Below, piece after piece: positions 2,131 to 52,314 of a stretch of DNA of 64,000 nt. A model generated the notes under the pieces. The model had not been told where the DNA came from. It did no database searches and saw only the letters and a list, made by a program, of their open reading frames with translations. The position numbers and the translations under genes are program-made. How positions within the stretch are numbered: position 1 is the first letter of the stretch; each line of letters starts with the position of its first letter. This stretch comes from a virus (taxonomy: Duplodnaviria; Heunggongvirae; Uroviricota; Caudoviricetes): IMG/VR virus record IMGVR_UViG_3300020050_014748; one strand, written 5' to 3'.

Positions 2131-2133
2131 AAA

Positions 2134-10014: not shown

Positions 10015-10019
10015 ATATA

Positions 10020-20197: not shown

Positions 20198-20226
20198 TTG
20201 ACTTCTTTAATATAGGGGAGTATAAT
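20198..20226 (+). promoter_or_regulatory. promoter family copy (TTGACTTCTTTAATATAGGGGAGTATAAT)
   Basis: Exact TTGACT-N17-TATAAT. Confidence 0.7.
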
Positions 20227-24157: not shown

Positions 24158-24186
24158 TTGACTTCTTTAATATAGGGGAGTATAAT
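24158..24186 (+). promoter_or_regulatory. promoter family copy placed for a leaderless mRNA
   Basis: Identical 29-mer TTGACTTCTTTAATATAGGGGAGTATAAT; the ATG at 24193 lies 7 nt after the -10. Confidence 0.7.
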
Positions 24187-27678: not shown

Positions 27679-27707
27679 TTGACTTCTTTAGTATGGGGGA
27701 GTATAAT
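27679..27707 (+). promoter_or_regulatory. promoter family copy placed for a leaderless mRNA
   Basis: TTGACTTCTTTAGTATGGGGGAGTATAAT; the ATG at 27714 lies 7 nt after the -10. Confidence 0.65.
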
Positions 27708-34086: not shown

Positions 34087-34656
34087 ATGGATGAATCAAA
34101 AAAAGAAGAAATTGTTAGTGTTGAACCGGAAAGTGAAGTAAAAGAAAATACTATTGATCAGAAAAACGCAGAAGATAAGAAGGATGAGCCGATAGATTTT
34201 CTTCTTAGAATTGTCCCTGAACACAGAAAGGTGAGTAGGGAAGTTACAGAGGGTGATATTGAAAGAGTGATAGAAGAAGCAAAAGTACTTTTTAATATCT
34301 GTTATTCTCAGAATGGTCCGTATAATGGTGCACTTGCGATGGCCCATCCACAAATAGACGATAAGGATCCACTTAGATTTTTTGTAACTGCAAGTGCTGA
34401 ATTAATAATAAATCCAGTTATTGTGAGACGAACAAAAACTACAATAGATTCAGTTGAGGGTTGCTATACATACCCAAGCTTACCACCACTTAAGACCGTC
34501 CAAAGATCAAATAAGATTGAGGTTGAATATCAAACAATAGAAGAAGACGGGAAACTATCAAGGGTGTCATACAAGGGGGTAAGTGGGAAGGAAGCAAAAG
34601 TTTGGCAACACGAAATTGGGCATTTGGATGCAGTTTATATATACGATAATAATTAA
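34087..34656 (+). CDS. hypothetical protein
   Basis: ORF. Confidence 0.45.
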   Translation: MDESKKEEIVSVEPESEVKENTIDQKNAEDKKDEPIDFLLRIVPEHRKVSREVTEGDIERVIEEAKVLFNICYSQNGPYNGALAMAHPQIDDKDPLRFFVTASAELIINPVIVRRTKTTIDSVEGCYTYPSLPPLKTVQRSNKIEVEYQTIEEDGKLSRVSYKGVSGKEAKVWQHEIGHLDAVYIYDNN

Positions 34657-34674
34657 TATTAATAATACAAAAAT

Positions 34675-35217
34675 ATGTTTAGAAGAATATTTAAAATGAG
34701 TAATAAAGTAGAGAATCATGTAATCAAAGGGGATGCAAGTGGTAATATTGTTGATGATAATAGTGTATTAGATCCTATTTGGGACGATACAAACAAAGAA
34801 ACAAAACCAATACATATGAGTGTTACATTAAATAGAATGGATAGTATGTATAATGACATAAATGATTTCAATGGAAGTATGTCACTTTTATCTTTATATG
34901 CAAATGAAACAATCCTAGTTGAACCATCACGTAAGTTTAATGTTAACTCGTGGATTTCAGTAAAATTACCAGAAGGTGTTATGTGTCTTATAAAAGAAAC
35001 ACCTGAGATGCTCAAAGAGGGTTTCCATGTATTAGGTGGCTTACTGGATGAGACACACAATGGTGATATTGATGTAACATTGATTAATTCTTCAGATAAA
35101 GCAAAAATGATAGCAGAGGGTGATAAAATTGGTCAACTATTTTTCATCCCAACTCTTACTGTTGATTTCAATAAAACAGAATTACAAGAAAAAGAAGAAA
35201 TTAAAATAGTTGATTAA
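34675..35217 (+). CDS. dUTPase/dCTP-deaminase-like protein
   Basis: GGLLDETHNGDIDVTLIN resembles dUTPase motif 3 (G.IDxxYRG...N); other motifs not seen. Confidence 0.35.
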   Translation: MFRRIFKMSNKVENHVIKGDASGNIVDDNSVLDPIWDDTNKETKPIHMSVTLNRMDSMYNDINDFNGSMSLLSLYANETILVEPSRKFNVNSWISVKLPEGVMCLIKETPEMLKEGFHVLGGLLDETHNGDIDVTLINSSDKAKMIAEGDKIGQLFFIPTLTVDFNKTELQEKEEIKIVD

Positions 35218-35220: not shown

Positions 35221-35835
35221 ATGAAAGAAATTAAAGCACATGATTTTCCAAGTGTATACAAAGACCTTAATATAGATTTGTCTAAATTGGGTTGTGTGAT
35301 GCTTGACGTTGACCCAATTTATAATAATACAGATGTTGATGATGAGGAATATTCAAGGTTTTATTATGTTGAGCCTAAATATTTGTATTACGCAAAAAAT
35401 AAAGATAAATTTTGGATAAATGGATGGGTAGCAGAAGAGACACCCCACATGACACTTCTTTATGGTTTAATGAAGGAAGCAGAAGAATACAAAGATCAAA
35501 TAAGAGAACTTCTAAAAGACTGGAATTGTAAATCTGTTCAAATAGAAGACATTGATTCATTTGATTCCCCTTATGAAGATGAAGAGTATTATTGTATTGT
35601 TGCGAAACTTAAACTTACTGATAATATAATTGAGGGTCATAACAGGATGCAGTTACTCCCACACATTGACACATATTCAGAATATAAACCACATGTTACA
35701 ATATGTTATATACAGAAAAATGACAAACTAAGAGATGAGATAATTAAGGATTTAAAGGAGACATTAGTGGGAAGAAGATTGTATATTACCAATATTAATT
35801 TAGGTGGAAATAAAAATGAGAAACGAACAACCTAG
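35221..35835 (+). CDS. 2H phosphoesterase superfamily protein (LigT / cyclic phosphodiesterase / Acb1-like)
   Basis: Two H-x-T-x motifs about 80 aa apart: ETPHMTLLYGL and YKPHVTICYIQ. Confidence 0.55.
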   Translation: MKEIKAHDFPSVYKDLNIDLSKLGCVMLDVDPIYNNTDVDDEEYSRFYYVEPKYLYYAKNKDKFWINGWVAEETPHMTLLYGLMKEAEEYKDQIRELLKDWNCKSVQIEDIDSFDSPYEDEEYYCIVAKLKLTDNIIEGHNRMQLLPHIDTYSEYKPHVTICYIQKNDKLRDEIIKDLKETLVGRRLYITNINLGGNKNEKRTT

Positions 35836-36766: not shown

Positions 36767-38398
36767 ATGGCTATAAATAAAGAAATTACATTTGGGGAAG
36801 GTGCATTAACTCGAATACAAAAAGGTATAAATACAGTAGCTGAACTAGCTGGTGTAACACTCGGCCCTCGTGGTAGAAATATCATTGTTGATAGAGGTAT
36901 TATGCCACCAAGTATCAGTAATGATGGCCTTGATGGCATACGAACAGTTATACTAAAGGATCGTCTTCAGAATATGGGAGCAGACATTGTTAGAGATGTT
37001 GCAATTAAAACTAACGATAAAGCAAGAGGAGCAAGAACAGCTTCTATTGTGTTAACACAATCAATTTTTAATGAAGGTTTTAGCCAGATAAAAAAGGGTG
37101 TTAATGTTATTGCAATTAAAAAGGGTATTGAAAAGGGTGCTGCTTATGTAATTGAAGAACTAAAGAAAAGAGCTACTAAGATTGAAACAAATGATCAATT
37201 GAAAGCAGTTGCTACTATATCATCTGAATCAGAAGAATGTGGTGCTATTGTAGCTGAAGCATTTGATAAGGTGGGTAAAGATGGAATCGTCAAAGCAGAG
37301 GAGTCTACTTTGAGTAGTGGTATTACTCTTGAAATTGTTGATGGAATGAAAATAGAGAGAGGTTGGATTAACCCGTGGATGGTCAACAATCCAAATAAGA
37401 TGGAGGCAGAATACGATAATGTTGCAGTTATGATTGTTGATAAAAAGATGATCCAAATCAAAGACTTTCTTCCTATTCAAGAAAAAATGGCAACATCTGG
37501 TATTGGAGAACTTCTTATTATAGCAGAAGATGTTGATGGTGAGGCGCTTGAGACACTCGTGGGTAATAATATGAGAGGAGGATTTCGTGTTGTTGCAATT
37601 AAATCTCCAGGGTTTGGTGTTGAAAAGAAAGAGATACTTAAGGATATTGAAATATTGACTGGTGCAAAGATAATCTCAGATGAAACAGGGAACCCAATGA
37701 AGACAGCGGAACTTGATAGTGTTGGTTTTGCAAAGAAGATTGTTGTATCTAGAAATGAAACAGTAATCATTGGTAATCCAAATACAAAAGAACTTGTTAA
37801 TAATAGAATAGAAGAACTTAAAACTCAACTTTCAGAACTTAAATCAAACATTGATATTAAGAATATGGAGTCAAGAATAGGAAAACTCTCTGGAGGAGCT
37901 GGTATAATAAAGATAGGAGCATTAACAGAAGCCGGAATGAAATATCTTAAAATGAAGATTGATGACTCTATTGATGAGGCAAGAAATTCACTTCAGGAAG
38001 GATTCGTAAAAGGTGGAGGCTCTGAGTTGTTTAGTATTGCAGACAGTATGTCACTTGAAAGTAAGGAAATGACAGCAGAAGAAAAAATTGGTTTCAATAT
38101 TGTCATGGAATCAATTAAGATGCCACTCAAGAAAATCATGATAAATGCTGGTGAGAACGATATTGAAGCAATGGAAAAAGAACTCTCTTTGAGACTGAAA
38201 GAACATAAAGATTCTGGTTATGATGCAATATCTGGTAAGATTGTTGATGATATGATAGAAGCTGGTATAATAGATTCTATTAAGGTTATTATAATCGCAT
38301 TACAGAATGCAGCAGAAGCAGCGGCAACTGCACTCACAATAGGAGCATCGGTCTCAGATGAAATAAAAGATAAAGAAGAAGACAAGAATAATTATTAA
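36767..38398 (+). CDS. GroEL/Cpn60-like chaperonin (divergent)
   Basis: VTLGPRGRNII, NMGA and apical/equatorial blocks are conserved; lacks the C-terminal GGM repeats. Confidence 0.8.
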   Translation: MAINKEITFGEGALTRIQKGINTVAELAGVTLGPRGRNIIVDRGIMPPSISNDGLDGIRTVILKDRLQNMGADIVRDVAIKTNDKARGARTASIVLTQSIFNEGFSQIKKGVNVIAIKKGIEKGAAYVIEELKKRATKIETNDQLKAVATISSESEECGAIVAEAFDKVGKDGIVKAEESTLSSGITLEIVDGMKIERGWINPWMVNNPNKMEAEYDNVAVMIVDKKMIQIKDFLPIQEKMATSGIGELLIIAEDVDGEALETLVGNNMRGGFRVVAIKSPGFGVEKKEILKDIEILTGAKIISDETGNPMKTAELDSVGFAKKIVVSRNETVIIGNPNTKELVNNRIEELKTQLSELKSNIDIKNMESRIGKLSGGAGIIKIGALTEAGMKYLKMKIDDSIDEARNSLQEGFVKGGGSELFSIADSMSLESKEMTAEEKIGFNIVMESIKMPLKKIMINAGENDIEAMEKELSLRLKEHKDSGYDAISGKIVDDMIEAGIIDSIKVIIIALQNAAEAAATALTIGASVSDEIKDKEEDKNNY

Positions 38399-39214: not shown

Positions 39215-39508
39215 ATGCAAATAGAACGCTCTTGTAAAAATTGTGGGAGTAAGTTTTTTGCTAAAAAACATAAGCAATTATTCTGTAGTAGACGTTGTTT
39301 TAAACAAGATTACTTTAAGAAAAAGAAAGCTGAGTTTGAGGGGAAGTTCCCAGCATATAAATGTTCTAAGTGCTTAAAATCAACAAATCTTAATTTTGAC
39401 CCAGTTCAAAATACTCTTAGGTGGGCTGAATTCAAGTGTCCACACTGTAATGATCCAGACATTAATATATATGTAATATTCTCAATAGAAACATTTATAG
39501 TATTTTAA
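39215..39508 (+). CDS. zinc-finger protein
   Basis: CKNCG...CSRRC...CSKC...CPHC motifs. Confidence 0.45.
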   Translation: MQIERSCKNCGSKFFAKKHKQLFCSRRCFKQDYFKKKKAEFEGKFPAYKCSKCLKSTNLNFDPVQNTLRWAEFKCPHCNDPDINIYVIFSIETFIVF

Positions 39509-39510
39509 TA

Positions 39511-39546
39511 AAAAACAACCCTATTAGTTAGGGTTGTTTTTTATTG
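39511..39546. terminator. bidirectional rho-independent terminator between convergent blocks
   Basis: AAAAA-CAACCCTA-TTAGT-TAGGGTTG-TTTTTTATT; the hairpin overlaps the stop codon of the giant gene. Confidence 0.7.
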
Positions 39547-42500
39547 TGTTAGTTAAATTTGAGTATTTTTGAGTTGGTGTGTCAATGTTCGGTGTCTCAG
39601 GGTTTAATGAGAAATCAACACCTTCAGATGCCTCAAGATAAGCCTTAGCAACCTTAGGTGATGCATTAATTATAGTATTAAGTCTATATACATACCGGGG
39701 GGTATCGTACTTACCTGTGTCAAATGAAATATTACCATCTTTTGTTACTGCAGCCCATCGAGCGATTGAATCAATGTCTTCTTGTGTATATGTTCCATTA
39801 TCAACATTATCAAGGAAAAAATCTTCAATTTCTTTTATTAATTCCTTTTTATTTGCTTTTGATATTCCTTTTTTATTGTATTCTTTTTTTATGTTTTTAA
39901 ATAATTTTATAAACTGATTTAATGATTTATTTTCGAGTGGTATATCAGTCAATGATTCTCTGACATTTTTAACACCAAGTTTATCAGCATCTAATCTTAC
40001 CTTGTCTGGTATTCTAAAAGTTATTGTTTCTGGTAGGCTTAACCACTTCTCTTGATATGGAGTTATTCTTCCACCACTTTCTTTTATATTTTTAATTAAT
40101 TCAATTGATGGTTTTAATCTAGTAAAAACCTCATCAAGATTTTTACTTTTTTCTGATATTTTTTCAATATTAAATATTTTTTGGATATTTGACATTGCAC
40201 CTTTAATTGATCTTGCTTCACTATTTGATATCGTATCTCCTATTTTTTCTTCTGTTTTTTTAATATTAAATTTTTTTTGAATGTTTAGTATTGTATCACT
40301 ATATGTTTCTTTTTCTTTTGTTGATTTTTTTATATTTTTAGGTATGTTTTTATCACTCAGTTTTTTAAAAACTTGTTTTATCATCCAAGATGGATTATTG
40401 TCTTCACTTCTATTTACTATATCTAGTGATTTTTTGGAGTCAAGGGCTTCCTGTAGGGCCTGACTTCTTAGTTGTCTTTCTGTTTTACCCCAAGATGGAA
40501 TTGCGATAAAATCATCTGGACTTGAATTAGTAAAACCAGACTCAACAAGATTTCCATTTGAAAAAATATCATATTTTGACCTACCCTCCCCTGGTTTTAC
40601 TTTGTAAATTTTAATTTTTAAATCATTTTCTATTATTGTATCCATAACACGATTTACTACAGATATGTGACTTGTCTGATCATCTCCAACAAGCTGATTT
40701 TTGATAACATTAATTATGTTCTTTGATGTAACATATCCAGATTTTGTAACATTAACTTCAGTGAATGGTGTCGCCAGATTTCCTCTCTTGAGTACAGCAT
40801 TAGCATAACTCTCAGGAACACCACCCTCACCAACTTTTATAATAAGCATCTTGTCCCCATCTTGGTCAGCTTGGTGTATAACTCTCTCGTTAAAATGACT
40901 CACAACAGCATGTTCTCTTCCAAGACTCTCGTGCCCTAATTTTGTGCCGTTAATAGCCTTAGCAACTGTGATGTTGTTAATATCATAAGAAGGATCGCGC
41001 ATAATCATAACCTTATCACCTTCTTTTATATCCCTCTTCTTCATAAATTCAGCACCTAGTACAACTTCATCATCTTTAACATACCGCCATGGTTTATTAG
41101 GTCCATCTATTGGTAATTTAATGGATGGTGAGTAGAATAATCTACCACTATTAGGTAGGTTGTCAGACAATACTGTTTCCATAAACATGTTCTTTGATAT
41201 CTTCTCGAGGTTGTGGGCAAGGTTTACTCTTGCGGCTCCAAGCTTAAATGATTCACCCATTGGTCCGTAGAATAGTTCATCTTTATCTAAGTTATATTTT
41301 TCTGCGTATTTATCTATGACTTTTTCTAGTTTTTCTTTTGTATTTGCTTCCATTGCCTCCTTGTTAAAGGCCTCAAAATCTTTTCTTCTTTTGGCTGTTT
41401 CCGCAAGCATATCTTCTGTTACTTTTGGATCATTACTTGAGAATTTTCTTTCTAGGGATGATTTAACACGTCCATCCTCACTTGCGCTAATAGGTTTAAA
41501 ATATATATCAGATATATTTACATCGAGTGATCCCTCCTTTGGTCCAAGTTTCATGTTTGTATCAAAAGTTACTATTTCATTTCTTCCAAGATCTAAACCA
41601 TATTCTTCTTTGAGCATTTTTCTATATGCAGCATCAGCTCTTGTCATGTGGCTTTTCATTATTATTTTAACTTTTGACCCATCAGCTTTTTCTACATATC
41701 CAGAAATAAGAGGTTTTGAACCTGTTGTGTATTTTGTTGGGTCATAATCAACTCCCCCTATAGATTTATCAAAAAAATCTTCACCTGCTATTGTCTTACC
41801 ATCGACTTCTGATCCCTTCTTAAATGATTCTACTGCTTTTCTTGCTTTTTCACTTTGTGGATCTTCAAACTTAGATGAATCTATGTCTAATTCTTTTCGA
41901 TCTCCTATTGTTTTTGCCTTTAAAATATGCATCTTTACCTTACCTGTTTCTTTTGAAACATCATAGCGATGAGTATTCAAGTTTGATCTTTTAACAAAGT
42001 CACCAGCTGTTGCATCTTTAGGCCAACCTAAAACATCAACAGAGAAAGTTCTTATAAATTTATCATCCGAAGAAAATTCTGAGGTTTTTTCACCCTTATT
42101 TAAATATTTTAAAGGATTAGTATCAAAATCCTTAACAAGTTTAGGTTCTTTTTTTATGAATACTATACCATCTGATCCTTTTTTAACAATCCCGAGTGGG
42201 GTATAACCTTTTTTGTCAAGATGTTGTATTTCGTCTGTTAAATAATAAAGTATATTCCTACTATCAGTTGGATTTTTTATTTCATCGCGATAATTATTAT
42301 TTTTCCCAACATGAATAATCTCCATTGAGTCTTCAGGGAGTCCGTTTTCTTTATTGAATTTTTTTATATCCTTATCTAGTTGTCCAATGTTTTCTTTAGA
42401 TCCTTCTTTAAATACCAATCCATACCCACCTTTATTAAGAATAATCTCCTTTCTTGTCCCAGAATTTGCTTTTCTTCTATATAGCCAACTTAGATCTCTT

Positions 42501-45500
42501 AAATCTTTTGTGTTTGTAATTTCAAAAGAATCATCTCCTGTTGCTTTTTTAATCTTATTTGTAAATATTTCAATAAACTTAGGCCATCCTTCGTTTATAT
42601 TTTCGCCATTATTAGATACCTCTTTTGCTAGTTTTGTTATGTTTTTTTCCGTAAAATCTCTCCTTGTTTTAGGATCTGATATTATTGAAGCAACTCCAGC
42701 ATTAACACCTTCCTCTCCTCTTCCTGTCATTATAAAGTTTCTAAAATTTGGAGATTTTACTTTTTTAACTGTTTTTTCAACGGGTGTCATATCAGCTCTG
42801 TCAGATTCATTTACAATAGTATTCTCAATATTTTTTGATGTAACATAACCACTATCTTGTGTTGTTGGTATTTCAGGTGTTTTAACTATTGTTTTTTGTT
42901 CAGGGATTATCTCTGTTTTTCCGATAGTATCTATATTGGTACCATCGTTCTGTTTTTGTATTGTCGTATCAACTACCGGTTTTTTATTTGGTACCTGTTC
43001 TACTGATTCAACTACTGGTGTTGCTGGATTGTTAGATTCTTTTGCTAATCTTTCTGTGTTTATTGAATCTTCAAATCTTCCGTCTGTAAGTTGTACTCTT
43101 AGGTGGTATTCTTGTTTTCCACTACTCTTACCCCCCTTAGTGGTCATTAATCCTGTTTTTAACGGAAGAATTCTTCCCCAAACACCCTTAATTCCATTAT
43201 CTCTCAGTGATTGACTTAATGTATCTTTATTATTAAATTTATTGTATTCAATAAGGCTATCTGGTCCTTCTGTGTTAACCTTTTCGTTCATTTTTGGTAT
43301 TCTACTTTCTCTCGCAACAAAACCAAGTGAAATAAAAGTATTTTCACCTGTTTCTGGATGTTTTATAACACCAAATGCTTCAACTGTATTTTGTGGATTT
43401 TTAAATGGAGTAAACTCACCTTTGTCTATTTTTTCTTTAGGTGTTGTTTTATTTAAAAACTCCATTTTGTTTTTATAATCACTACCTCTATCCATCAAGA
43501 ATACATTATCACCAAACGGAGCTTCTCCTGATTTTACTGCTTTGTCAAATGCTTCTATGTTTAATCTAGTCTTTCCTTCATTAATAGTACTTCCACCTCC
43601 AGTTAATGGATAAATACCTGTAGCTGAGAATTTACCACTAGGTTTTTCTGTGAAATTAACAGGTGAAAGATCCTTTTGTGTTGAATTGCCGTATGTTTCA
43701 TAAAGATGATTAGGAATTTTATCACCAAGTACACCCGTAATTGTTTTTGATTCTTGTAATTGTTTTGCTATAGATTTTACATCAGCAATATCTGCACGAT
43801 CTCTGATTATAGCACCCATACCTCCTTTATCTAATTGTCTAACAGAAGCAAGGGCTTTCAGTAACTCAGAGTCAGACTCACGAGGTGTCCAACCTTCATC
43901 ATAAGCAGCTTGTTCTATGTTTGTTAAAGCTTCTTCTTTTATTGACTCTAATTCTTTTTGTGTGTATTTTCTTGATCCATTTCCACTCTTAGTTGTATTA
44001 ACGGGTGCCCATTTATTAAGAACATCATTAGAAGCCTCATCAGCAACCTTGTTCATTTCTCTAACAATAACATCCTCATATTTCTCACCCTTATTAACTA
44101 TTGTTGAGTGTTTATCTCCCTTCCAATTCATTACATCTCTAGATAATGGTGATTTTTGCATCATCTTACTACCCATGCCGTGCAAACCTACCATTGTAAC
44201 CGCGCTGGCAAATGCATCTTCTGGTGATTCTCCGTTTATTGTACTTAGAACAAGTGCAGGTGCTACCATTTTTGCATATCCTTTTAGATTTTGCCCTGCT
44301 GTTGTGAACAGTGAACCCATTATTGCTTCTGTTGCAAATGTACCCGCATAATCCATAAAATCAGACTCACTTTGTGTATCTAATCCATCATGTATTGCTT
44401 GCTTAGCAACACCAAAAGACCCGAAATTAAAAGCATTTCGAAGTATAGGGCTATATTTTATACGAGCTGCAACTCTTTTGTCTATTTCCATTGGGATTTG
44501 TTGCAAGTCAAGATTACCTTCTGCTTTTGCTAACCTATTTGCATCCTTAAGTGCCTTTGTTGCATTCACAACTTGTGTTTTTGATATTTTCCCAGTTTCT
44601 TTGCCAAAATTATTAATTTTAGAAAGAGCGCTCTTTACTTTTTCAAACCCTGGTATTTTAATTTTACTAGATAACTCTGGTGCTATTGTTTTAATTGGAT
44701 TCATATCAAAAAGCCCGGCATTCCACGGTAATGGTTTAACAACATTTGATACAGGACTTTTTGCAAAAACCTTACCCAAACCTGGTATTTTTGATAATAC
44801 TATTCTTGTTTTTGTTAATCCTTTGATAAAACCACCGAGTGTTCCTATTGTTGATATACCATATCCAGTACCGTATGCTATTTTTTCTGCAGTAGTACGC
44901 TCTTCTGGTTCTTCAAGAATAGCCAAACCAGCAGGAGATCCCATGACAAGACCCTTTCCGAATTCACCAGCTATTGTATTTTCACCCTTGTCATTTTCTC
45001 CAAATTTTGCGAATACTGAAGGGATTTCCTTCCATACAGCTTTTACTGAGTCAGTAAAAGAATGACCGAAAGTCCCCTTAGGGTGCTGTACGTCAAATTC
45101 AAATTTTTGTTTCGCCTTAATTGCTGCATCATCAAGACCCAGGAGTTTATAATATTCCTCTTTAGCTTTATTTTTTTCTTCTCTATCTAGTCCGTACGCA
45201 ATCTTTGATAATTCATCAGCTTTTTCTCTTGGAAGATTTGTTATCATTCCAAATTTATCAGGCATTGGAAGATCATCTACATTGTATGACTCCCAGTTGA
45301 GTGCCATCGTAAATGCTTCATCCCTTGTTATTTTACCTTGAGTCAATAGTGTAAGAGGAATGGCCTGTGCTTTTGTTTTTCTAATATGGTCCTTTGTATT
45401 TAAAACCTGCTTGTTTTCGAGTGTGTCTAATCCACCTAGCCATAAGGGTATGATGTGATCTATTTGAACTTCAATTTTTGATCTTCCACCTCTTAGTATT

Positions 45501-45913
45501 TTATTCTCTTCTGGTTCGTATCCTCTACTCGATTTTATTATTATACCAGGTTGGGTTGGATCTAGTGCATATTGCCCGCCACCCATTTTTTCTGATATGT
45601 TTCTTGCTACTGTTTTATCAGATGGATTACCCCACATAACCTCACCCTCTGGTGTTTTTTGTCCAGGTAAAAAATTTGATGAAAGATAACTCTCTGGAAG
45701 TTCTTGCATTTTAGATGAAGAAGGAAGTGATACTTGGACCTTCTCTGGCATAAGTGATTCACTTTCTATCCCCGTCTCTATTTTTTGAGGTGTTCTTATA
45801 TATGGTGATACATAAGAACTAGAAATACCACTCTGTACACTTTTTTGTAAGTTCTTAAAATTAGATGGACTTATTTTGTCTAAATATTCTGAATTTTCTT
45901 TTATATTTGCCAT
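39524..45913 (-). CDS. giant virion-type protein (2129 aa) with N-terminal HNH-like motif and a DxDGD (RNA polymerase beta-prime double-psi beta-barrel-like) motif; candidate virion-packaged RNA polymerase or injected protein
   Basis: Uninterrupted 6.4-kb ORF. Near aa 150-180, QIDHIIPLWLGGLDTLENKQVLNTKDH is a His-Me finger. At nt 40847-40870, ADQDGDKM (compare universal beta-prime NADFDGDQM) is preceded by RDPSYD...H. Confidence 0.7.
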   Translation of the reverse strand: MANIKENSEYLDKISPSNFKNLQKSVQSGISSSYVSPYIRTPQKIETGIESESLMPEKVQVSLPSSSKMQELPESYLSSNFLPGQKTPEGEVMWGNPSDKTVARNISEKMGGGQYALDPTQPGIIIKSSRGYEPEENKILRGGRSKIEVQIDHIIPLWLGGLDTLENKQVLNTKDHIRKTKAQAIPLTLLTQGKITRDEAFTMALNWESYNVDDLPMPDKFGMITNLPREKADELSKIAYGLDREEKNKAKEEYYKLLGLDDAAIKAKQKFEFDVQHPKGTFGHSFTDSVKAVWKEIPSVFAKFGENDKGENTIAGEFGKGLVMGSPAGLAILEEPEERTTAEKIAYGTGYGISTIGTLGGFIKGLTKTRIVLSKIPGLGKVFAKSPVSNVVKPLPWNAGLFDMNPIKTIAPELSSKIKIPGFEKVKSALSKINNFGKETGKISKTQVVNATKALKDANRLAKAEGNLDLQQIPMEIDKRVAARIKYSPILRNAFNFGSFGVAKQAIHDGLDTQSESDFMDYAGTFATEAIMGSLFTTAGQNLKGYAKMVAPALVLSTINGESPEDAFASAVTMVGLHGMGSKMMQKSPLSRDVMNWKGDKHSTIVNKGEKYEDVIVREMNKVADEASNDVLNKWAPVNTTKSGNGSRKYTQKELESIKEEALTNIEQAAYDEGWTPRESDSELLKALASVRQLDKGGMGAIIRDRADIADVKSIAKQLQESKTITGVLGDKIPNHLYETYGNSTQKDLSPVNFTEKPSGKFSATGIYPLTGGGSTINEGKTRLNIEAFDKAVKSGEAPFGDNVFLMDRGSDYKNKMEFLNKTTPKEKIDKGEFTPFKNPQNTVEAFGVIKHPETGENTFISLGFVARESRIPKMNEKVNTEGPDSLIEYNKFNNKDTLSQSLRDNGIKGVWGRILPLKTGLMTTKGGKSSGKQEYHLRVQLTDGRFEDSINTERLAKESNNPATPVVESVEQVPNKKPVVDTTIQKQNDGTNIDTIGKTEIIPEQKTIVKTPEIPTTQDSGYVTSKNIENTIVNESDRADMTPVEKTVKKVKSPNFRNFIMTGRGEEGVNAGVASIISDPKTRRDFTEKNITKLAKEVSNNGENINEGWPKFIEIFTNKIKKATGDDSFEITNTKDLRDLSWLYRRKANSGTRKEIILNKGGYGLVFKEGSKENIGQLDKDIKKFNKENGLPEDSMEIIHVGKNNNYRDEIKNPTDSRNILYYLTDEIQHLDKKGYTPLGIVKKGSDGIVFIKKEPKLVKDFDTNPLKYLNKGEKTSEFSSDDKFIRTFSVDVLGWPKDATAGDFVKRSNLNTHRYDVSKETGKVKMHILKAKTIGDRKELDIDSSKFEDPQSEKARKAVESFKKGSEVDGKTIAGEDFFDKSIGGVDYDPTKYTTGSKPLISGYVEKADGSKVKIIMKSHMTRADAAYRKMLKEEYGLDLGRNEIVTFDTNMKLGPKEGSLDVNISDIYFKPISASEDGRVKSSLERKFSSNDPKVTEDMLAETAKRRKDFEAFNKEAMEANTKEKLEKVIDKYAEKYNLDKDELFYGPMGESFKLGAARVNLAHNLEKISKNMFMETVLSDNLPNSGRLFYSPSIKLPIDGPNKPWRYVKDDEVVLGAEFMKKRDIKEGDKVMIMRDPSYDINNITVAKAINGTKLGHESLGREHAVVSHFNERVIHQADQDGDKMLIIKVGEGGVPESYANAVLKRGNLATPFTEVNVTKSGYVTSKNIINVIKNQLVGDDQTSHISVVNRVMDTIIENDLKIKIYKVKPGEGRSKYDIFSNGNLVESGFTNSSPDDFIAIPSWGKTERQLRSQALQEALDSKKSLDIVNRSEDNNPSWMIKQVFKKLSDKNIPKNIKKSTKEKETYSDTILNIQKKFNIKKTEEKIGDTISNSEARSIKGAMSNIQKIFNIEKISEKSKNLDEVFTRLKPSIELIKNIKESGGRITPYQEKWLSLPETITFRIPDKVRLDADKLGVKNVRESLTDIPLENKSLNQFIKLFKNIKKEYNKKGISKANKKELIKEIEDFFLDNVDNGTYTQEDIDSIARWAAVTKDGNISFDTGKYDTPRYVYRLNTIINASPKVAKAYLEASEGVDFSLNPETPNIDTPTQKYSNLTNTIKNNPN

Positions 45914-45914: not shown

Positions 45915-48071
45915 TTAATATATGAAATCTATTAACGCTTTTGCTGTTGCTTGTTCTTTAGGTACACCACTATAATCCACTGATGATGGATTTGGTTGAC
46001 TTATTAGATCTATGTATTCTCTTAGGTTAAATTCTGGATTTCCCTTTTTTGCAGTTTCGTTTTGTTTGTAAATTGCAGACAATATCATTGGATCTATGTT
46101 TTTATTGTCTTTAATGAACTGATCTTCTGTTTTCGGTGCCTTTGGCTTCGCTAGAAATGTACCCCAGAACGTATTATTATCACCACTTAATTGCTTAACG
46201 GCTTTATTTATATCATTGTAATTAGAGAGAATATATCCAGTTATTCCTGTTCCTTGTCCATCTTTTATGTCTCCGATTGCACCGCCAAGTAGTGATTGTG
46301 CCATACCCAATACTCTAGGTGCTAGACTTTTTGCGGTATTTTCATTAATAACACCACTATTTACATAAAGGTTAAAACTATCTACAATTGCAGATGAATA
46401 CTCTTGGGCCTTTTTTAATCCTTCAGGTGATGTATCTGGTGATTGTGTTAGATCGTAAACTTCTTCAATCCCAGCTCTTGTCCATATATCAATTCCAGCC
46501 ATAGCGTCTGCATCTCCATAAACAGAGAAGTTTTGTATTATACCAGGGAGGTTTGCTGTTTTTTTGATTCTACCATTTTCGTCAAGAATACTATCCTTGA
46601 AAACACCGTAATCTTTATAAAAGTCAGTTCTTCCTGATGCTATATCTGCATTCTCTCTTAGTAACTTACTAAGATTTTGTTCTTGTGTAAGTCTTGTGAG
46701 CATCTTCCCAGGTGCATCCTCTAGTGTTTTATACATATCAATAAGAACCTTCTTTGTTTCATCATATCTATCTTCTATATTATCCATTGCACTAGTGTAT
46801 AATCCTTGTGCTTCAGTGTATTGAGTCTTTACATTATCAAGATCTGATTGGAAATTTTTTATATTATTATCAACATAATCTGCATATCTCTGGTTTTGTC
46901 TCCCCTTGAGGGTATACAAATAATTCTTGTAATTTTTATACATAGCGTCAGTAACAGGATTACTTGTGTCTGTATTTGCAACAGTTTCATTAACATCATC
47001 AATCATTTTATTGATATCAGAAACATATTGATCTCTTGCTTTAACGTAGTCAATACTTGTATCTACTGCATTTGGAGACATATCCTGCAGTTCTTTTGCT
47101 TTATTAAGAAGTTCAGTAACACCATATTTTTTATCCAGCTCTTCTCCTAATTTTCCGATTTGACCTTCTTCCATTAATCCAAGCATTTGTTGTGCGAAAT
47201 ATTCAGATCCTGTATTTTTTCCGATAAAAGAAGGCGCAACACCCATAGCGTCTTCTAATGTTGCGTATCTTGGTGTAGTAGAACTTGGTGTCCCAGTAGA
47301 TGTTGTTGTACTACCTCCCGTTGTTTTAGGTACTGTAACATTTCCGACTTTCTGGGTTGTTTGTGATCCAGTTTGAGTTGGTGTAGTTTTTGTTGTTGTT
47401 GAAACGGTTCCGTCAGATTTCTTTACCGTTGTCTGAGTAGTAGCAACTGGTGTATTGTTTGATTTTAATTGATTAAGTTTTATATTATCTTGAACACTTT
47501 TCTGGAATTCATCAAAAGCTGTAAGTTTTGTTTTTGATCCACCCGCTAAAAACGATGTATCTTCTACTTTTTTAAGAGGGGAAAGAGTTAATGGTTCTGT
47601 TTTTGTGGGTGTGGTTGTTTTTGTTGTACTTGGAGTATAAGAATTACCAAACATGCTCTTCATTATGCTGTCTATGTTTGTATCTAATTTATTCGTGTTT
47701 GTTTTAAGAGTGGGAGCACTTGGAAACACCACAACTTTTGTCCCTTTTGTTGTACTTACTGGAGGGGTCGTTAAGCCACTTGAGCCAGATGAAGATCCTC
47801 CAAGTGAGAGACCTGATATTGGTGTAAAATTAGACGGTATTGAAAGACCTTGTGATGAAGATGTGTTCAGTGAGTTACCTTGTGCTCCTATATTCAATGG
47901 TCCACCTTGTCCATCATACTTACTCATTGATTTTTTTACAATAGAAAGTATTGATTTTGCTTTTGCACGTTTTGTGCTTCCAATAGGCGCATTAACTGCA
48001 TCATAAATAACCGAAGATAGCTTCGGGTGGTTCATAATTGAATTTATAATAGCATCTTTTTCTTTACTCAT
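45915..48071 (-). CDS. Thr/Ser-rich virion protein (718 aa)
   Basis: Long low-complexity T/S linkers and a coiled-coil region; in the structural block next to the giant protein. Confidence 0.55.
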   Translation of the reverse strand: MSKEKDAIINSIMNHPKLSSVIYDAVNAPIGSTKRAKAKSILSIVKKSMSKYDGQGGPLNIGAQGNSLNTSSSQGLSIPSNFTPISGLSLGGSSSGSSGLTTPPVSTTKGTKVVVFPSAPTLKTNTNKLDTNIDSIMKSMFGNSYTPSTTKTTTPTKTEPLTLSPLKKVEDTSFLAGGSKTKLTAFDEFQKSVQDNIKLNQLKSNNTPVATTQTTVKKSDGTVSTTTKTTPTQTGSQTTQKVGNVTVPKTTGGSTTTSTGTPSSTTPRYATLEDAMGVAPSFIGKNTGSEYFAQQMLGLMEEGQIGKLGEELDKKYGVTELLNKAKELQDMSPNAVDTSIDYVKARDQYVSDINKMIDDVNETVANTDTSNPVTDAMYKNYKNYLYTLKGRQNQRYADYVDNNIKNFQSDLDNVKTQYTEAQGLYTSAMDNIEDRYDETKKVLIDMYKTLEDAPGKMLTRLTQEQNLSKLLRENADIASGRTDFYKDYGVFKDSILDENGRIKKTANLPGIIQNFSVYGDADAMAGIDIWTRAGIEEVYDLTQSPDTSPEGLKKAQEYSSAIVDSFNLYVNSGVINENTAKSLAPRVLGMAQSLLGGAIGDIKDGQGTGITGYILSNYNDINKAVKQLSGDNNTFWGTFLAKPKAPKTEDQFIKDNKNIDPMILSAIYKQNETAKKGNPEFNLREYIDLISQPNPSSVDYSGVPKEQATAKALIDFIY

Positions 48072-48072: not shown

Positions 48073-48501
48073 TTATTTTAGATATTTCTTTGGATTTTTA
48101 AATTTGCCGAAAGAATCTACAATTCTATAATCTAAGTGGTCAGATGGGCCACCAGAATTTGAATAACTAGATCCACTGTCACCCATTGATCCAATGATTT
48201 TATTCTTAGGAACCATTTCCCCTGGTTTTACCATAATATCACGAAGGTGGCTATATCTATGTACGTTATTCTTTTTATCTTTTACTAAAATAGAATTCCC
48301 AAAACCATGATCTCCGTTTTTTTGCCCCGGCTTTACACCCACAACCTGACCTTCCTCCATGTTTGGAATAGGTGTTCCCTTTTTATTAGCGATATCTACG
48401 CCAGGGTGAAACTTTTCGTACTTAGTCTTACCTCCGTATTGGGTGGTAATATTCCCTAACGATGACAAGTTTGGATATTTCTTTTTTGGGACATTCTCCA
48501 T
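48073..48501 (-). CDS. M23-family peptidase (LytM-like endopeptidase)
   Basis: HPGVDIA (HxGxD) and a C-terminal GDSGSS...HLDYRI (HxH-like) motif. Confidence 0.6.
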   Translation of the reverse strand: MENVPKKKYPNLSSLGNITTQYGGKTKYEKFHPGVDIANKKGTPIPNMEEGQVVGVKPGQKNGDHGFGNSILVKDKKNNVHRYSHLRDIMVKPGEMVPKNKIIGSMGDSGSSYSNSGGPSDHLDYRIVDSFGKFKNPKKYLK

Positions 48502-48525: not shown

Positions 48526-51500
48526 CTATTTTTTACTTGCTTTTATGGCAGCAAGCGTGTCTTTACCAAGAATACCGTCAGGTGTAACCCCCGCCTTAAT
48601 TTGATATGCCTGGAGTGCACTTGCTGTTTTTTGACCAAATATTCCATCTACTGTTCCTGCACCATAATTGTTTTCATTCAAGAAGCTTTGTAGTTCACTA
48701 ACATAATTACTTTTTGCAGATCCTTGTTTTAAGTTACCATTCGTTAACCATGAATCATAATTGTATTTTGATCCAGTTACAGCAGTTGAAGCGCCATCTG
48801 TGGTACCTGTACCCATGTTACCAGCTGCTTTACTTGAATTTTCGAGTCCTTGGTTTTGCACGTTATAAGTAGATGGATCGTACTGTTTATTTTCTGATCC
48901 TGTTGTACTAAAAGTATCCTTATTTGAAGGTGAGTCAAATAAGTTTTCCTTATTACTCATTTCTTTTTCTTTTGCAAGTTTTAACTCAAGCTCGCTATTT
49001 GTCGTTAATAATTTGTTGTTTTGAAATTCTCTTGCTTTTTCTGAATTTGTAAGTTTATCTTTATAGAAATTAGTATAAAGACTACTTCTATAGTTTCCAT
49101 TCTCATCAAGAACAGAATCTCTATAAGCCTGTGCTTCTGCATCTGTTAATGTTGGATCAGCTTTCTTTATGTTTTCAAGACTAAACTTTTCTAGAATATC
49201 AGAAGATGGGGTTAATCCGAGTCTTTGTCTTTGTTCCGCAGAAAGAGCAGCTATTTGAGCTGGTGTTCCATATGTTCTAAGGTTATTCATCTCGGTTCTT
49301 TCTTCTTCTGTTAGTTTTATGTTTCTATTTCTTGAGTCAGCTAATCTTGCAGATTTCAGAACTTCATCAACGGCTTCATTTTTAAGTCCACTTTGTTGTA
49401 TACCTCTTTGGTTGTATGTTTCTTCAAGATTTTGAATCTGCTTCCATGCATTATTTGAATTATCACTAAGTGTTATTCCAAGGTCTCTCTCTACATCTTC
49501 CCTGAACTGTCTCATTTTTTCATCAGCAAGAGCTTTTTGTTGTTCTGTTTCAGCAGAAGCAACATCTGTTAATGCATCATAATATTGAGTTTTTATTTCA
49601 GATGCTAAGGCTTTCCATTCTGGTGTACCAGGTTTAGGGAGTCTCTCTGAGTATGCAGCAAAGAAGTCATCAGGTAGGTCACTTAATCCGTACTTTAATA
49701 TCTTAGGATCAAGTGTTCTCATCTTTGAATTAGACGGTAATAGTGTTTCCATTGCCTTAGAAGCTGCTTTTCCACTATCTGTTAACACGTAATCTGCTTT
49801 CTTTGCTGTTGGGTCTATAAATTTAGCCTCAGGAACTGTTTTCCCAAGTTTCTTTTGTTGCTGTGAATACATATCAGCGTAAATATCTCCCATTGTGTAT
49901 CCACCATAAGCTAAGGCACTTATATAGAACGCCATTTGTTTTGGGTCGTTTTTTATTTTAGTGACAAAGTCTTGTGTTAATTCACCAAACACTTTACCGA
50001 TATCTGCTTCGTCTTTAATAAACTTAGAAGCAGACCTTTCTGCTGATTCTGCTCTCTGGTTTCCATATAGATTTAGCGAATTAGATCCTTGTGTTGTTGA
50101 ACCCGATTGTGAGTTTGTTTGTGATCCTGTTTGTGATCCTGTTTGTGATCCTGTTTGTGGGGTATTTTCAACTCCAGGTTGAACCCCAGGTTGCACTTCT
50201 GTTTGTTGATTACCACTACCGGTGTTATTGGTATTTGTTTTTGGTTTTGAGTTATTTATTGCTTCTACAGTGCGTGGTCCTACAATACCGTCATCAACAA
50301 GTCCATTTTCTTTTTGGAATTTTTTAACAGCGGCTTCAGTTAATGGTCCAAACTTTCCATCTGCTGTAAGATTTGCACCTTTTGTATTTAAAAACTCTTG
50401 AAGTTTCTTGATATCAGTAGAAGATCCTGTATTTAATTTCAAGTTTCCAGAAAAGGATAACTGTTGCATGTTATTTGTTTGTGCAGTTGTATCAACACCC
50501 ATATTATTGCTTTCTTTTGTAGAAGTATTAATTCCACTAAAACCAACATCCCCTGCTTTTGCGTTATTAAAATTATTATTTTTTTGTACAAGTTGTGTTA
50601 ATTCTTGAACTGTATTAATGTTAGATATATCAATACCTGCATTTTTTGCTTGACCTTTTGCTTCATCAAAAAAAACTTGGTGATCTAATGCCCCTTTTAA
50701 ATCACTGCCTGTATACCCACTTTTTTTTGCTGTGTTTAATAAACCAATGTTATTTAAAACATTATTATAAGTACCTTTTTCTGTTAGAAACTTTTTAGCA
50801 ACCTCGTCCACTTTTACATAATCCAGCCAGTGTGATCTTTTGCTTTTTCCTAATTCTGGAACATACCCCTTAGCTAAAGCATCATCATAAGACATATCTT
50901 TTAACCCTTGCTTTGCCGCTTCGTCAAACAACTGTACTGTTGCAAGTAGTGATGAATATTTTTGTAGTGTTTCTGGGTTTTTTAGATCATCCCTATGTTT
51001 TATTGAATAATCTAATTCAGTAACTGCATCTGGGTATGTGTATTTTAGAATAGTTGGGATTTCTGGTGTATATTGGATGTTACTTGGTGATGTGTTAACA
51101 CTTTGATTTGATGATTGAGGTGTATTTTGTTGTGGTGCTTGTTGATTAACGACCGACTGTGTTGTTTTTTTGTTTATAACACTTAATGTATTTGGACCAA
51201 CAATACCATCAGGTGTTAAGCCGTTTGAGTTTTGGAATTTCTTGACAGCTGCTTCTGTGAGGGGTCCAAATTTACCATCAGCGGTTAATCCAGCATTCTG
51301 TGTAGTATTTAAAAAATTCTGAAGTTTCTTAATGTCCTCACTTGACCCTGTATTTAATTTAAGATTCCCCGAGAAAGATAATTGTTGAATATTGTTATTT
51401 AAAGCACTTGGTGTTGTATTTTTATTAATATTACTTGTATTTGAGCTTTGTTGAAACGCTTTTTCAGATGCAACATTAGAATAATCACCTTTTACATCAG

Positions 51501-52314
51501 ATGACATATCTATAATTGTTTTATTTACCTGTCCAGTTCGTGGATCATAAGCATCACCGTATAAATCCTTAGTATCAACTCTTGTTATATTTTCTAGTGG
51601 ATTCGGTATTGTGTTTTTGGATGAATTTGGGTTATATCCATTCCATGGAATACCTAATGCTGTTGTTATTTCTTTTATTGAAGTACCCAAACTTCCCGTG
51701 ATTGATTTTTTCTCTCCATTATTGTTATAGGTCCAATACTCAACAGCAATATTACTTCCACTTATATTTGGATCTATGTAATTTGTTTGATATATAACAC
51801 CGGGTGTTTTGTATTTACTGTGTGGGTCTCCATTATCATCAACAAGAGTTCCACCAACAGGAATAGATCCTGTTGTTGTGTACATCTTTCCATTAAGAAC
51901 ATATTTTTGTTCCTTTTGAACCTTTGGTGATGTTGTATCGTATGTTGAAGGATTTGGGCCCATGTCAGGTGCCATAACGGCCTTAATCTGATTTAGGTCA
52001 CCTTTATAACCAGATTGAGCTGCTTTTTGTACAGCAAGATCATTGAGTGACATTAAATTTGTTTTTATAGCGTTATCACTCCCGAAGTCTTTTTTTGCAT
52101 CACCTTGACTTATATATAAACCAAGTTCCCCCCCTGTCAAGGATGGACTTGCTAGAAATTTTTGTGTTAAATCTTTTGGATTATAAACAATATTCTCGTA
52201 TGGATTACCTGGAATAGGAGACCATTTCCAATCTCTTGTAACCTGAAAATCACCGTATTGATGATACGGTGCACTGTATAATTTTTCGTAATAAGCGCGG
52301 GATGCAGCTGACAT
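48526..52314 (-). CDS. large virion protein (1262 aa) with three peptidoglycan-binding (PG_binding_1) domains; tape-measure/ejection-associated candidate
   Basis: Three copies of LQ.FLN...LT.DGKFGP.T..AV..FQ...GL..DGI.GP.T. Low-complexity QTGS repeats. Confidence 0.6.
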   Translation of the reverse strand: MSAASRAYYEKLYSAPYHQYGDFQVTRDWKWSPIPGNPYENIVYNPKDLTQKFLASPSLTGGELGLYISQGDAKKDFGSDNAIKTNLMSLNDLAVQKAAQSGYKGDLNQIKAVMAPDMGPNPSTYDTTSPKVQKEQKYVLNGKMYTTTGSIPVGGTLVDDNGDPHSKYKTPGVIYQTNYIDPNISGSNIAVEYWTYNNNGEKKSITGSLGTSIKEITTALGIPWNGYNPNSSKNTIPNPLENITRVDTKDLYGDAYDPRTGQVNKTIIDMSSDVKGDYSNVASEKAFQQSSNTSNINKNTTPSALNNNIQQLSFSGNLKLNTGSSEDIKKLQNFLNTTQNAGLTADGKFGPLTEAAVKKFQNSNGLTPDGIVGPNTLSVINKKTTQSVVNQQAPQQNTPQSSNQSVNTSPSNIQYTPEIPTILKYTYPDAVTELDYSIKHRDDLKNPETLQKYSSLLATVQLFDEAAKQGLKDMSYDDALAKGYVPELGKSKRSHWLDYVKVDEVAKKFLTEKGTYNNVLNNIGLLNTAKKSGYTGSDLKGALDHQVFFDEAKGQAKNAGIDISNINTVQELTQLVQKNNNFNNAKAGDVGFSGINTSTKESNNMGVDTTAQTNNMQQLSFSGNLKLNTGSSTDIKKLQEFLNTKGANLTADGKFGPLTEAAVKKFQKENGLVDDGIVGPRTVEAINNSKPKTNTNNTGSGNQQTEVQPGVQPGVENTPQTGSQTGSQTGSQTNSQSGSTTQGSNSLNLYGNQRAESAERSASKFIKDEADIGKVFGELTQDFVTKIKNDPKQMAFYISALAYGGYTMGDIYADMYSQQQKKLGKTVPEAKFIDPTAKKADYVLTDSGKAASKAMETLLPSNSKMRTLDPKILKYGLSDLPDDFFAAYSERLPKPGTPEWKALASEIKTQYYDALTDVASAETEQQKALADEKMRQFREDVERDLGITLSDNSNNAWKQIQNLEETYNQRGIQQSGLKNEAVDEVLKSARLADSRNRNIKLTEEERTEMNNLRTYGTPAQIAALSAEQRQRLGLTPSSDILEKFSLENIKKADPTLTDAEAQAYRDSVLDENGNYRSSLYTNFYKDKLTNSEKAREFQNNKLLTTNSELELKLAKEKEMSNKENLFDSPSNKDTFSTTGSENKQYDPSTYNVQNQGLENSSKAAGNMGTGTTDGASTAVTGSKYNYDSWLTNGNLKQGSAKSNYVSELQSFLNENNYGAGTVDGIFGQKTASALQAYQIKAGVTPDGILGKDTLAAIKASKK
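50117..50160. repeat. 12-nt tandem repeat (tttgtgatcctg, about 3.5 copies) encoding (QTGS)n
   Basis: Direct tandem copies visible in the sequence. Confidence 0.7.

Follow-up and report, generated by a model that had tools for sequence, protein, structure and literature searches.

A giant open reading frame with a catalytic-type motif

The window analyzed here is a stretch of 64,000 nucleotides (nt) from an uncultured virus of the class Caudoviricetes (IMG/VR record IMGVR_UViG_3300020050_014748), and the subject of this report is a giant gene on its minus strand. The open reading frame (ORF) list of the window gives this gene as a single long ORF at positions 39524 to 45913, which begins with ATG, ends with a stop codon at 39524 to 39526, and encodes 2129 amino acids (aa). 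A protein identical to the product (P0001) was found on 5 metagenome contigs. A sequence-only reading of the window had proposed that the product is a two-barrel RNA polymerase (RNAP) carried in the virion. The ORF and all of the motif strings on which that proposal was built are present in the translation, which includes ...VVSHFNERVIHQADQDGDKMLII..., and the string ADQDGDKM occupies aa 1682 to 1689 (nt 40847 to 40870), as had been stated. Within it, D1683-Q-D1685-G-D1687 (40853 to 40867, minus strand) is the predicted Mg-binding catalytic triad. The upstream string RDPSYD also exists and runs from aa 1639, but it lies 43 residues before A1682 rather than the approximately 37 first described; its first three residues, R1639-D-P1641 (40991 to 40999, minus strand), make up an R-x-P motif.

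The giant protein's copy is the only D-x-D-[GA]-D among the window ORFs of at least 60 aa. Because 0.043 occurrences of D-x-D-G-D are expected by chance in a protein of this size, as calculated from its own composition, a single copy is weak evidence and serves as a lead. The motif is taken beyond chance by its invariance across homologs.

A metagenomic family with an invariant, active-site-like pattern

A search of 5.8 billion proteins recovered 33 homologs, all of them metagenomic and none functionally named, and the C-terminal part of the giant protein was present in 14 of these. R1639, P1641, D1683, D1685, and D1687 were invariant in an alignment of 13 homologs whose identity to the query fell as low as 18 to 22%. 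A HMMER profile of aa 1230 to 1900 was then run against 1.84 billion cluster representatives and matched 98 clusters, 79 of them at <1e-30. Nearly all of the 98 are 2000 to 2700 aa long and have the domain around residues 1200 to 2000. Residue conservation was counted over the 79 long profile matches, which are treated below as the family representatives. All 79 are invariant at G1372, K1420, K1455, R1639, P1641, D1683, D1685, and D1687, while K1400 is kept in 78 and N1453 in 77. The form [G/A]-D-x-D-[G/A]-D is near-universal in homologs having the domain and often reads as the classical GDFDGD or GDYDGD. Judged from these alignments, this is the pattern expected for an active site under purifying selection, and the polymerase region is probably catalytically active.

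The family is otherwise anonymous. None of the ten family clusters that were looked up has a functional name from any source. When the window protein and two divergent family members were compared by tblastn with 50,697 GenBank phage records, none of the three was matched, and scans of GTDB genomes and IMG/VR found no close relatives. A repeat word-indexed homolog search with profile A1 returned one protein only. Literature searches turned up no description of the family, although one may nonetheless exist. Three full-length homologs (P0006, P0007, and P0008; 2295 to 2388 aa) have an additional precomputed Pfam match to PF00300, the histidine phosphatase superfamily, which the window protein does not have.

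A predicted two-barrel polymerase fold in the C-terminal half

The region from aa 1230 to 1900 (40214 to 42226, minus strand) was modeled with AlphaFold2 from a 13-sequence alignment as a two-barrel RNA polymerase core, with a mean predicted local distance difference test score (pLDDT) of 81.4 and a predicted template modeling score (pTM) of 0.78. The model contains two beta-barrel modules with a helical connector between them, followed by a long helix. The upstream module, at aa ~1370 to 1475 (41489 to 41806; strands at model residues 144 to 244, pLDDT 85 to 96), is a candidate for the beta-like double-psi beta-barrel (DPBB-B) and contains G1372, K1400, K1420, N1453, and K1455. The connector spans aa ~1486 to 1585 (41159 to 41458), about 100 residues with helices at model residues 257 to 353; in gp66 of phi14:2, a crAss-like phage, and in QDE-1 it is ~140 residues. 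The beta-prime-like barrel (DPBB-A) follows at aa ~1589 to 1700 (40814 to 41149; strands at model residues 360 to 465). Here R1639-x-P closes a strand, and D1683 to D1687 form the loop preceding the last strand. K1420 and K1455 may be the counterparts of the beta-subunit lysines, to judge from their invariance and their position in the model.

Other assignments follow from position. The 33-residue helix after DPBB-A (aa 1730 to 1762; 40628 to 40726; model residues 501 to 533) keeps G1743 in 69/79 representatives and R1755 in 70/79 and is, by its place in the model, a bridge-helix candidate. A variable, low-confidence stretch at aa 1858 to 1891 might, again by position, be a trigger loop. Upstream of the modeled core, a conserved region at aa 1061 to 1229 (42227 to 42733; conservation 0.39 to 0.47) may be the polymerase's N-terminal domain. 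Downstream, the C-terminal region at aa 1901 to 2129 (39527 to 40213) is conserved at its end (W2053, N2061, A2089, and Y2092). All of these features are on the minus strand.

The model was compared with the PDB by two independent structure-comparison programs, one of them Foldseek, and both put two-barrel polymerases first. The highest structure comparison score was obtained for the phi14:2 crAss-like virion RNAP (6VR4; 19.1, with 527 of 671 residues aligned), followed by P74-26 gp62, the homolog of the P23-45 non-virion RNAP (15.0), the tape-measure-fused virion RNAP gp96 of P23-45 (12.4), RPA1 (12.4), RDR2 (11.1), isolated double-psi barrels (about 11, at 1.9 Å), QDE-1 (10.8), and PolD DP2 (8.7). 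Archaeal, vaccinia, African swine fever virus, and bacterial beta-prime-type subunits scored 9 to 12. The other single-chain two-barrel enzymes superposed on 322 to 414 residues of the model. Foldseek E values were 2.2e-11 for 6VR4, 7e-9 for QDE-1, 8e-7 for RDR2, 5e-5 for gp96, and ~1e-3 for beta-prime-type subunits. On the strength of the model, aa 1230 to 1900 very probably have a two-barrel polymerase fold.

The sequence-only reading had named two checks for its proposal, conservation of DxDGD in orthologs and a DPBB around the motif accompanied by a second barrel. Both were run. The D-x-D-[GA]-D triad is invariant in 79/79 representatives and both barrels appear in the AlphaFold2 model, so the idea is not refuted on either count. 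The two-barrel reading is instead upheld by the joint invariance of the triad, the R-x-P motif, and the lysines, and by a two-barrel model whose best PDB match is 6VR4.

Sequence links to known polymerases

Single-sequence searches of the whole protein against Pfam, PHROGs, and the PDB found no polymerase and only a weak HNH match, and profile A1 matched nothing relevant among PDB sequences. A link was found through the weakest significant profile hits, P0123 to P0126, which are other giant or mid-sized metagenomic proteins. The Pfam domain RNA_pol_Rpb1_2 recognizes all four of them, three above the gathering cut-off and P0124 below it (17.8 versus 25.3 bits); for RNA_pol_Rpb2_6, P0124 is above the cut-off and P0123 just under. 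With hhalign, the catalytic barrel of the window-protein family aligns to P0123 to P0126 at 94 to 97% probability. These alignments pair HRDPSYD with WRDPTHD and DQDGD with DFDGD, and HRDPMQD likewise stands opposite R-x-P in the Pfam-anchored proteins. The sequence-only reading had also likened RDPSYD to the NRAPTLH motif of multisubunit enzymes. That pairing was recovered in part: hhalign places RDPSYD on NRAPTLH and ADQDGD on NADFDGD of Escherichia coli RpoC, but in an alignment that is not significant.

An HNH domain and a modular N-terminal half

The N-terminal half contains a conserved domain at aa 96 to 215 (45269 to 45628, minus strand; AlphaFold2 pLDDT 80 to 93) with an HNH (beta-beta-alpha-metal) motif. 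Its core lies at aa 148 to 181 (45371 to 45472), where D152-H153, N167, and H176 follow one another. The HNH-like string IDHIIPLWLGGLDTLENKQVLNTKDH begins at aa 151, and the Pfam and PHROG HNH stretches cover aa 146 to 183. Profile A3, built on aa 95 to 215, matches solved HNH domains at 1.5e-5 to 4e-3, led by Cas8f-HNH (1.5e-5) and ZRANB3 (7e-4) and then McrA and the Cas9 HNH. PF01844 is matched by 23/25 members (best 2.4e-7); the window protein itself reaches 21.3 bits as an excised domain (cut-off, 21.4) and 16.3 bits at full length. Among the homologs D152 and N167 are invariant, H153 is nearly so, and position 176 is H or N. The model shows a strand at 149 to 153, a strand at 168 to 172, and a helix at 173 to 191, all at a pLDDT of ~90. 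The N-terminal His-Me finger that the sequence-only reading had picked out thus holds up, and aa 96 to 215 are, on profile and model evidence, an HNH domain and a predicted nuclease. Aligned by hhalign, the HNH profile showed no similarity to the window's own free-standing HNH endonuclease gene, which belongs to a different subfamily.

The rest of the N-terminal half is less readily named. A glycine-rich, partly hydrophobic helical region at aa 284 to 606 (44096 to 45064, minus strand; pLDDT 27 to 56; Gly 10.6%) includes one mildly hydrophobic 19-mer at aa 314 to 332 and may make contact with a membrane or channel. The middle region at aa 612 to 960 (43034 to 44080, minus strand; pLDDT ~60 to 90) is modeled as a helical bundle and an alpha/beta domain, and a poorly conserved Pro/Thr/Lys-rich linker follows at aa 961 to 1060 (42734 to 43033, minus strand), with the conservation minimum at aa 951 to 1050. 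AlphaFold2 returned a mixed model for aa 1 to 960 (pLDDT 62), and Foldseek found nothing for it in the PDB (best E value, 0.37). In so large a query, the small HNH unit was probably drowned out. For the glycine-rich and middle regions, no structural relative was recognizable.

The sequence-only reading had regarded the union of HNH and RNAP elements in one polypeptide as unusual. It is not a one-off: the HNH module is present in 75/77 full-length polymerase-bearing representatives, which makes it the standard architecture of the family, and the two representatives without it appear to be N-terminally truncated. A further set of proteins shares the N-terminal part and has no polymerase domain. 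These are 19 of the 33 first-round homologs (P0010, P0012, P0015 to P0027, and P0029 to P0032), in which only the N-terminal ~600 to 900 residues, including the HNH domain, are shared; D-x-D-x-D occurs nowhere in the 16 of them that were scanned. One of them, P0021 (locus L013, 10001 to 16015), sits in the same genome slot, after the genes for a peptidoglycan (PG)-binding protein, an M23 peptidase, and an 886-aa protein. Since polymerase-free homologs share the N-terminal part, the giant protein can be described as modular, with a common chassis and a polymerase payload.

Genome context and phage affiliation

The structural operon is on the minus strand and is read from high to low coordinates, and the giant gene is its last gene, not the head of the module as the sequence-only reading had placed it. 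The first part of the operon encodes the probable terminase (with an intein), an SU10-type portal, an SU10-type major capsid protein, a holin, and an HNH endonuclease. The middle encodes a LamG fiber protein, an SU10-type adaptor, and proteins of 762, 650, and 191 aa. Three genes precede the giant gene at the end of the operon: a 1262-aa protein with three PG_binding_1 domains (48526 to 52314; PF01471, 1.9e-50; endolysin PHROGs), a 142-aa M23 metallopeptidase (48073 to 48501; PF01551, 1.9e-17), and a 718-aa protein with no family match (45915 to 48071), all on the minus strand. These very large neighbors are as the sequence-only reading had described them. The M23 gene keeps its position in relatives, in which a protein of 718 to 942 aa occupies the place of the 718-aa neighbor. 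Relatives with only 20 to 25% identity, whose polymerase cores are ~20% identical, preserve the order PG-binding/LysM protein, M23 peptidase, ~700- to 940-aa protein, and giant protein, and in them, too, this block converges on an SbcCD/RecA module. A bidirectional intrinsic-terminator-like hairpin (39506 to 39546; 18-pair stem with A and T runs) lies between the convergent operons and overlaps the stop codon of the giant gene.

Pfam identifies SU10_portal, SU10_MCP, and SU10_adaptor in the structural operon. The major capsid protein and portal match only assorted podoviruses (119X-like phages, EBPR podovirus 3, and N4-like portals) at ≤30% identity and no Crassvirales. The portal matches listed are N4-like portals, apart from Bacillus phage PK1 and a few others. 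The window is phage DNA also in its remaining content, which includes a primase-helicase (21980 to 23734), UvsX, SbcCD, a helicase, an exonuclease, GroEL, and peptide deformylase. The holin (Phage_holin_4_1; 62110 to 62556, minus strand) is part of the structural operon, and an Amidase_2 endolysin is encoded elsewhere (11206 to 11820, minus strand). Together with the PG_binding_1/LysM/M23 cassette proteins and a GC content of 33%, the holin and endolysin hint at a Gram-positive host.

Several other features of this genome and its relatives were recorded. Just upstream of the convergent terminator, plus-strand genes encode a GroEL-type chaperonin (36767 to 38398; PHROG match, 2.8e-114), a peptide deformylase (34087 to 34656), a dUTPase (34675 to 35217), and a protein weakly resembling 2',5' RNA ligases (35221 to 35835). 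The minus strand between 12058 and 15012 holds eight tRNA genes, three of them for Leu and the others for Tyr, Gln, Met, Pro, and Gly, and at least 3 further tRNAs lie to the left of the window (L011, 1635 to 1705, 2304 to 2376, and 2522 to 2593). The free-standing HNH endonuclease gene inside the structural operon encodes 218 aa (60507 to 61163, minus strand; L003, 11394 to 12050; L004, 6244 to 6900) and is missing between the same flanking genes in L005, a contig from NCBI GCA_013558375.1. Such presence/absence polymorphism is typical of homing endonucleases. An intein-splicing domain is present in the gene immediately upstream of that for the portal (L003, 1 to 622), which probably encodes the large terminase, and the ribonucleotide reductase of a relative (L013, 18105 to 20801) has an intein with HNH_3. 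At the left end of the window, positions 1 to 3312 form a plus-strand block of five genes with an unusually low GC content of 0.29 to 0.31 and a very high AT skew (0.39 in the first 2 kb); the neighbor upstream of this block, outside the window, has a COOH-NH2 ligase domain.

Promoters and candidate targets

Between 9.6 and 27.7 kb, genes for replication and recombination are preceded by nine near-identical sigma70-type promoters (CTTGACTTCTTTAATATAGGGGAGTATAATG). Six are on the minus strand (9646 to 9674, 9987 to 10015, 11172 to 11200, 15110 to 15138, 18059 to 18087, and 19752 to 19780) and three on the plus strand (20198 to 20226, 24158 to 24186, and 27679 to 27707). Their conservation is limited to the span from −35 to −10 and a few downstream bases, with a conserved spacer of 17 nt and GGGGAG just before the −10 element. 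No such element was found to the left of 9600 or in the structural operon. The sigma70-type promoter is the only repeated intergenic element found, and the replication and recombination genes are most simply explained as transcribed by the host.

In the 10 kb to the left of the window, three tRNAs and noncoding elements bounded by hairpins accompany ~20 tiny, unannotated ORFs, none of which matches a known family. Tiny ORFs of this kind are typical of early genes, and we conjecture that an injected polymerase would most naturally find its early genes here. In its gene-poor stretch beside the extra tRNAs (L011, 414 to 1531; ~8.5 to 9.6 kb left of window position 1), five inverted repeats with arms of 27 to 33 nt, 77 to 91% complementary, enclose noncoding elements of ~100 to 190 nt. 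No Rfam match to these elements was found at an E value of ≤0.1; they may function as structured RNAs or as signals for replication or packaging. A scan for DxD[GA]D across the window and both flanks read revealed no second polymerase candidate, and the other window ORFs of at least 700 aa (SbcC and the 718-, 762-, and 1262-aa proteins) gave no polymerase match.

A proposed packaged polymerase and its alternatives

In short-tailed phages, internal ejection proteins are encoded at such an end-of-operon position. We infer packaging and ejection because the giant gene occupies this ejection-protein site, which is equivalent to that of phi14:2 g066. The account that we favor, with moderate confidence and by analogy, is that an uncultured podovirus carries the product inside its virions as an ejection protein built of modules. 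Its N-terminal ~950 residues would be the chassis common to other giant proteins at the same genome position, consisting of the HNH nuclease domain, the glycine-rich helical region, and two further domains. After a flexible linker, the C-terminal ~1070 residues would contain a single-chain two-barrel RNA polymerase, in which D1683, D1685, and D1687 would bind the catalytic Mg2+ with R1639-x-P1641 in the same barrel and the invariant K1420 and K1455 in the other. The protein would be a late product that is packed into the capsid. On infection, it would be ejected in company with the 718-aa protein, the M23 peptidase, and the protein that binds peptidoglycan, and inside the cell it would transcribe the first phage genes, leaving most other window genes, with their strong host-type promoters, to the host polymerase. 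Taken by itself, the claim that the protein is packaged and ejected to transcribe early genes seems, on analogy, a little better than an even bet.

Several observations weigh against this account. Direct hhalign comparisons, made with the 13- and 79-sequence profiles, to E. coli RpoC, E. coli RpoB, and phi14:2 gp66 were not significant, and the sequence support is limited to one barrel. In the upstream barrel, the extended sequence alignments have zero confidence and were not used to map the lysines. The polymerase appears dispensable for the function of the chassis in sister lineages, since 19/33 homologs are without the module. Neither the window nor the 10 kb to its left yielded a distinct repeated motif that could be the promoter of a phage polymerase, and infection might in principle be launched from the host-type consensus promoters with no virion polymerase involved. 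Only gene order (synteny) and analogy point to packaging and ejection, and catalytic activity, a DNA template, and the set of genes transcribed are likewise predictions.

An active two-barrel RNA polymerase might also be expressed late and act outside the virion, for example on late genes or in priming, with its operon position incidental. We regard this as unlikely. The chassis of ~1000 residues also occurs polymerase-free at the same locus, directly after the M23 and PG-binding genes, which fits an ejection protein, and its fusion to an intracellular enzyme is hard to explain. The size of the protein and its end-of-operon position moreover mirror phi14:2 gp66, which has been proven to be present in virions (Drobysheva et al., bioRxiv 10.1101/2020.03.07.982082).

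Slightly more doubtful still is the possibility that the two-barrel module serves mainly as a genome-entry motor or anchor that works through transcription, or that it makes RNA primers or copies RNA. Among the close relatives in fold, QDE-1 and RDR2 work on templates of RNA or single-stranded DNA, PolD shows that the two-barrel fold can make DNA, and P23-45 gp96 has been proposed to transcribe during DNA translocation. A motor or primer maker would also agree with the result that no phage-specific promoter motif was found. The window already encodes a primase-helicase, however, and the best fold match is a DNA-dependent transcriptase of early genes; nor do the motor, primer, and RNA-copying options exclude early transcription.

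The giant protein might also have only a structural or channel-forming role in ejection, with an HNH domain and with barrels that are a relic lacking polymerase activity. This would suit two observations: at this position sister lineages get by on a protein that has no polymerase, and most of the giant protein has no recognizable enzymatic fold. Inactivated enzymes normally lose their active-site residues, however, and three Asp, the R-x-P motif, and two Lys are invariant over 79 clusters with identity down to ~20%, which indicates purifying selection on an active site and makes a relic very improbable. Least credible is the reading that a giant protein of repetitive or tape-measure-like type contains the motif by chance and that the model is an AlphaFold artefact, for although the chance expectation of D-x-D-G-D in a protein this long is 0.04 and single-protein searches of Pfam, PHROGs, and PDB sequences find no polymerase, a pLDDT of 81 and a pTM of 0.78 from only 13 sequences, two-barrel polymerases ranked first by two independent structure-comparison programs, family-wide motif invariance with a Pfam-anchored sequence bridge, and a podovirus-type adaptor with no tape-measure context have already refuted it as far as computation reaches.

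Within the packaged-polymerase account, the constant HNH partner raises the question of how the polymerase gets its template. We speculate, as a long shot, that the HNH domain of the injected protein nicks or cuts the incoming phage genome or the host chromosome and so makes a single-stranded or open template of the kind preferred by two-barrel polymerases like gp66 and QDE-1. If this were true, one polypeptide would both prepare and transcribe its template without a promoter-melting factor, a way of initiating transcription that is not known from any RNA polymerase, in a third independent lineage of virion two-barrel polymerases.

Comparison with known systems

Judged by the model and by analogy, the giant protein would work most like the crAss-like virion RNAP in fold, size, chain organization, and genome position. 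It shares with phi14:2 gp66 (6VR4) a length of ~2100 to 2200 aa in a single chain, which contains both barrels together with a helical connector and, after them, a long helix, and a catalytic motif in the C-terminal half. In phi14:2, another short-tailed phage, g066 likewise has two genes for giant virion proteins beside it where the structural operon ends, although it stands between g067 and g065 whereas the window gene is the last in its operon. The differences are in the sequences and the genomes. No sequence similarity to gp66 is detectable (hhalign probability, 0.2 to 0.3%), with no match to PDB sequences or crAss PHROGs. The RNAP motif reported for all crAss-like phages is DFD[I/V]D (Drobysheva et al., bioRxiv 10.1101/2020.03.07.982082), whereas the motif of the window-protein family is D-x-D-[G/A]-D, with Gly or Ala at the fourth position in every member listed. 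The window-protein family also has an N-terminal HNH domain, and the capsid, portal, and adaptor genes of the window phage are SU10/N4/119X-like and not Crassvirales. Membership of the crAss gp66 family is ruled out by the missing sequence homology, the Gly/Ala in the motif, and the non-crAss genome background, and the structural-gene matches rule out a crAss-like phage.

The Thermus phages P23-45 and P74-26 encode non-virion RNAPs (gp64 and gp62, respectively), and gp96 of P23-45 is a virion RNAP fused to the tape measure (PMC10770324; PDB 8H2N and 8F5M for this group). In gp96 the polymerase is N-terminal and the fusion partner is a siphovirus tape measure with membrane and metallopeptidase domains (PMC10770324). 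In the window phage, a podovirus, the polymerase is C-terminal, the fusion partner includes HNH, and the M23 peptidase is a separate gene. A tape measure protein or gp96-type fusion is ruled out by the podovirus SU10 adaptor and portal and by the lack of a tape-measure match. QDE-1 and RDR2 (2J7N, 5FSW, and 7W84) differ as eukaryotic cellular enzymes that act on RNA or single-stranded DNA templates, with no sequence similarity, virion context, or HNH domain. Compared with multisubunit RNAPs, both barrels of the giant protein are in one chain, and there is no direct significant match to the beta-prime domain of Pfam (RNA_pol_Rpb1_2) or to E. coli RpoC.

N4 gp50 is a T7-like right-hand polymerase and has a different fold; no right-hand polymerase structure was among the fold matches listed for the giant protein. 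The N4-like (Schitoviridae) system offers a functional analogy, as a giant polymerase packaged in a podovirus capsid: the virion RNAP gp50 is expelled with two further ejection proteins, gp51 and gp52 (PMC13434306).

A catalog of two-barrel polymerases lists 23 families (PMC10770324), and the giant protein may represent a third, sequence-unrelated virion-type two-barrel family of ~80 clusters at 50% identity, which may already figure among those 23. It stands out by the family-wide HNH fusion, the polymerase-free sister proteins, and the different podovirus lineage. The family would also widen the sampling of the phage clade proposed as the source of the eukaryotic polymerases of RNA interference.

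To our knowledge, virion-carried two-barrel RNA polymerases are experimentally known from only two groups, the crAss-like phages and the P23-45-like Thermus phages. If its activity is confirmed, the giant protein would make the injection of a cellular-type polymerase a recurrent solution among tailed phages and would provide a relative with a more canonical DxDGD for studying unfolding, tail passage, and refolding, together with a natural experiment in the form of sister phages that have the same N-terminal chassis without the polymerase.

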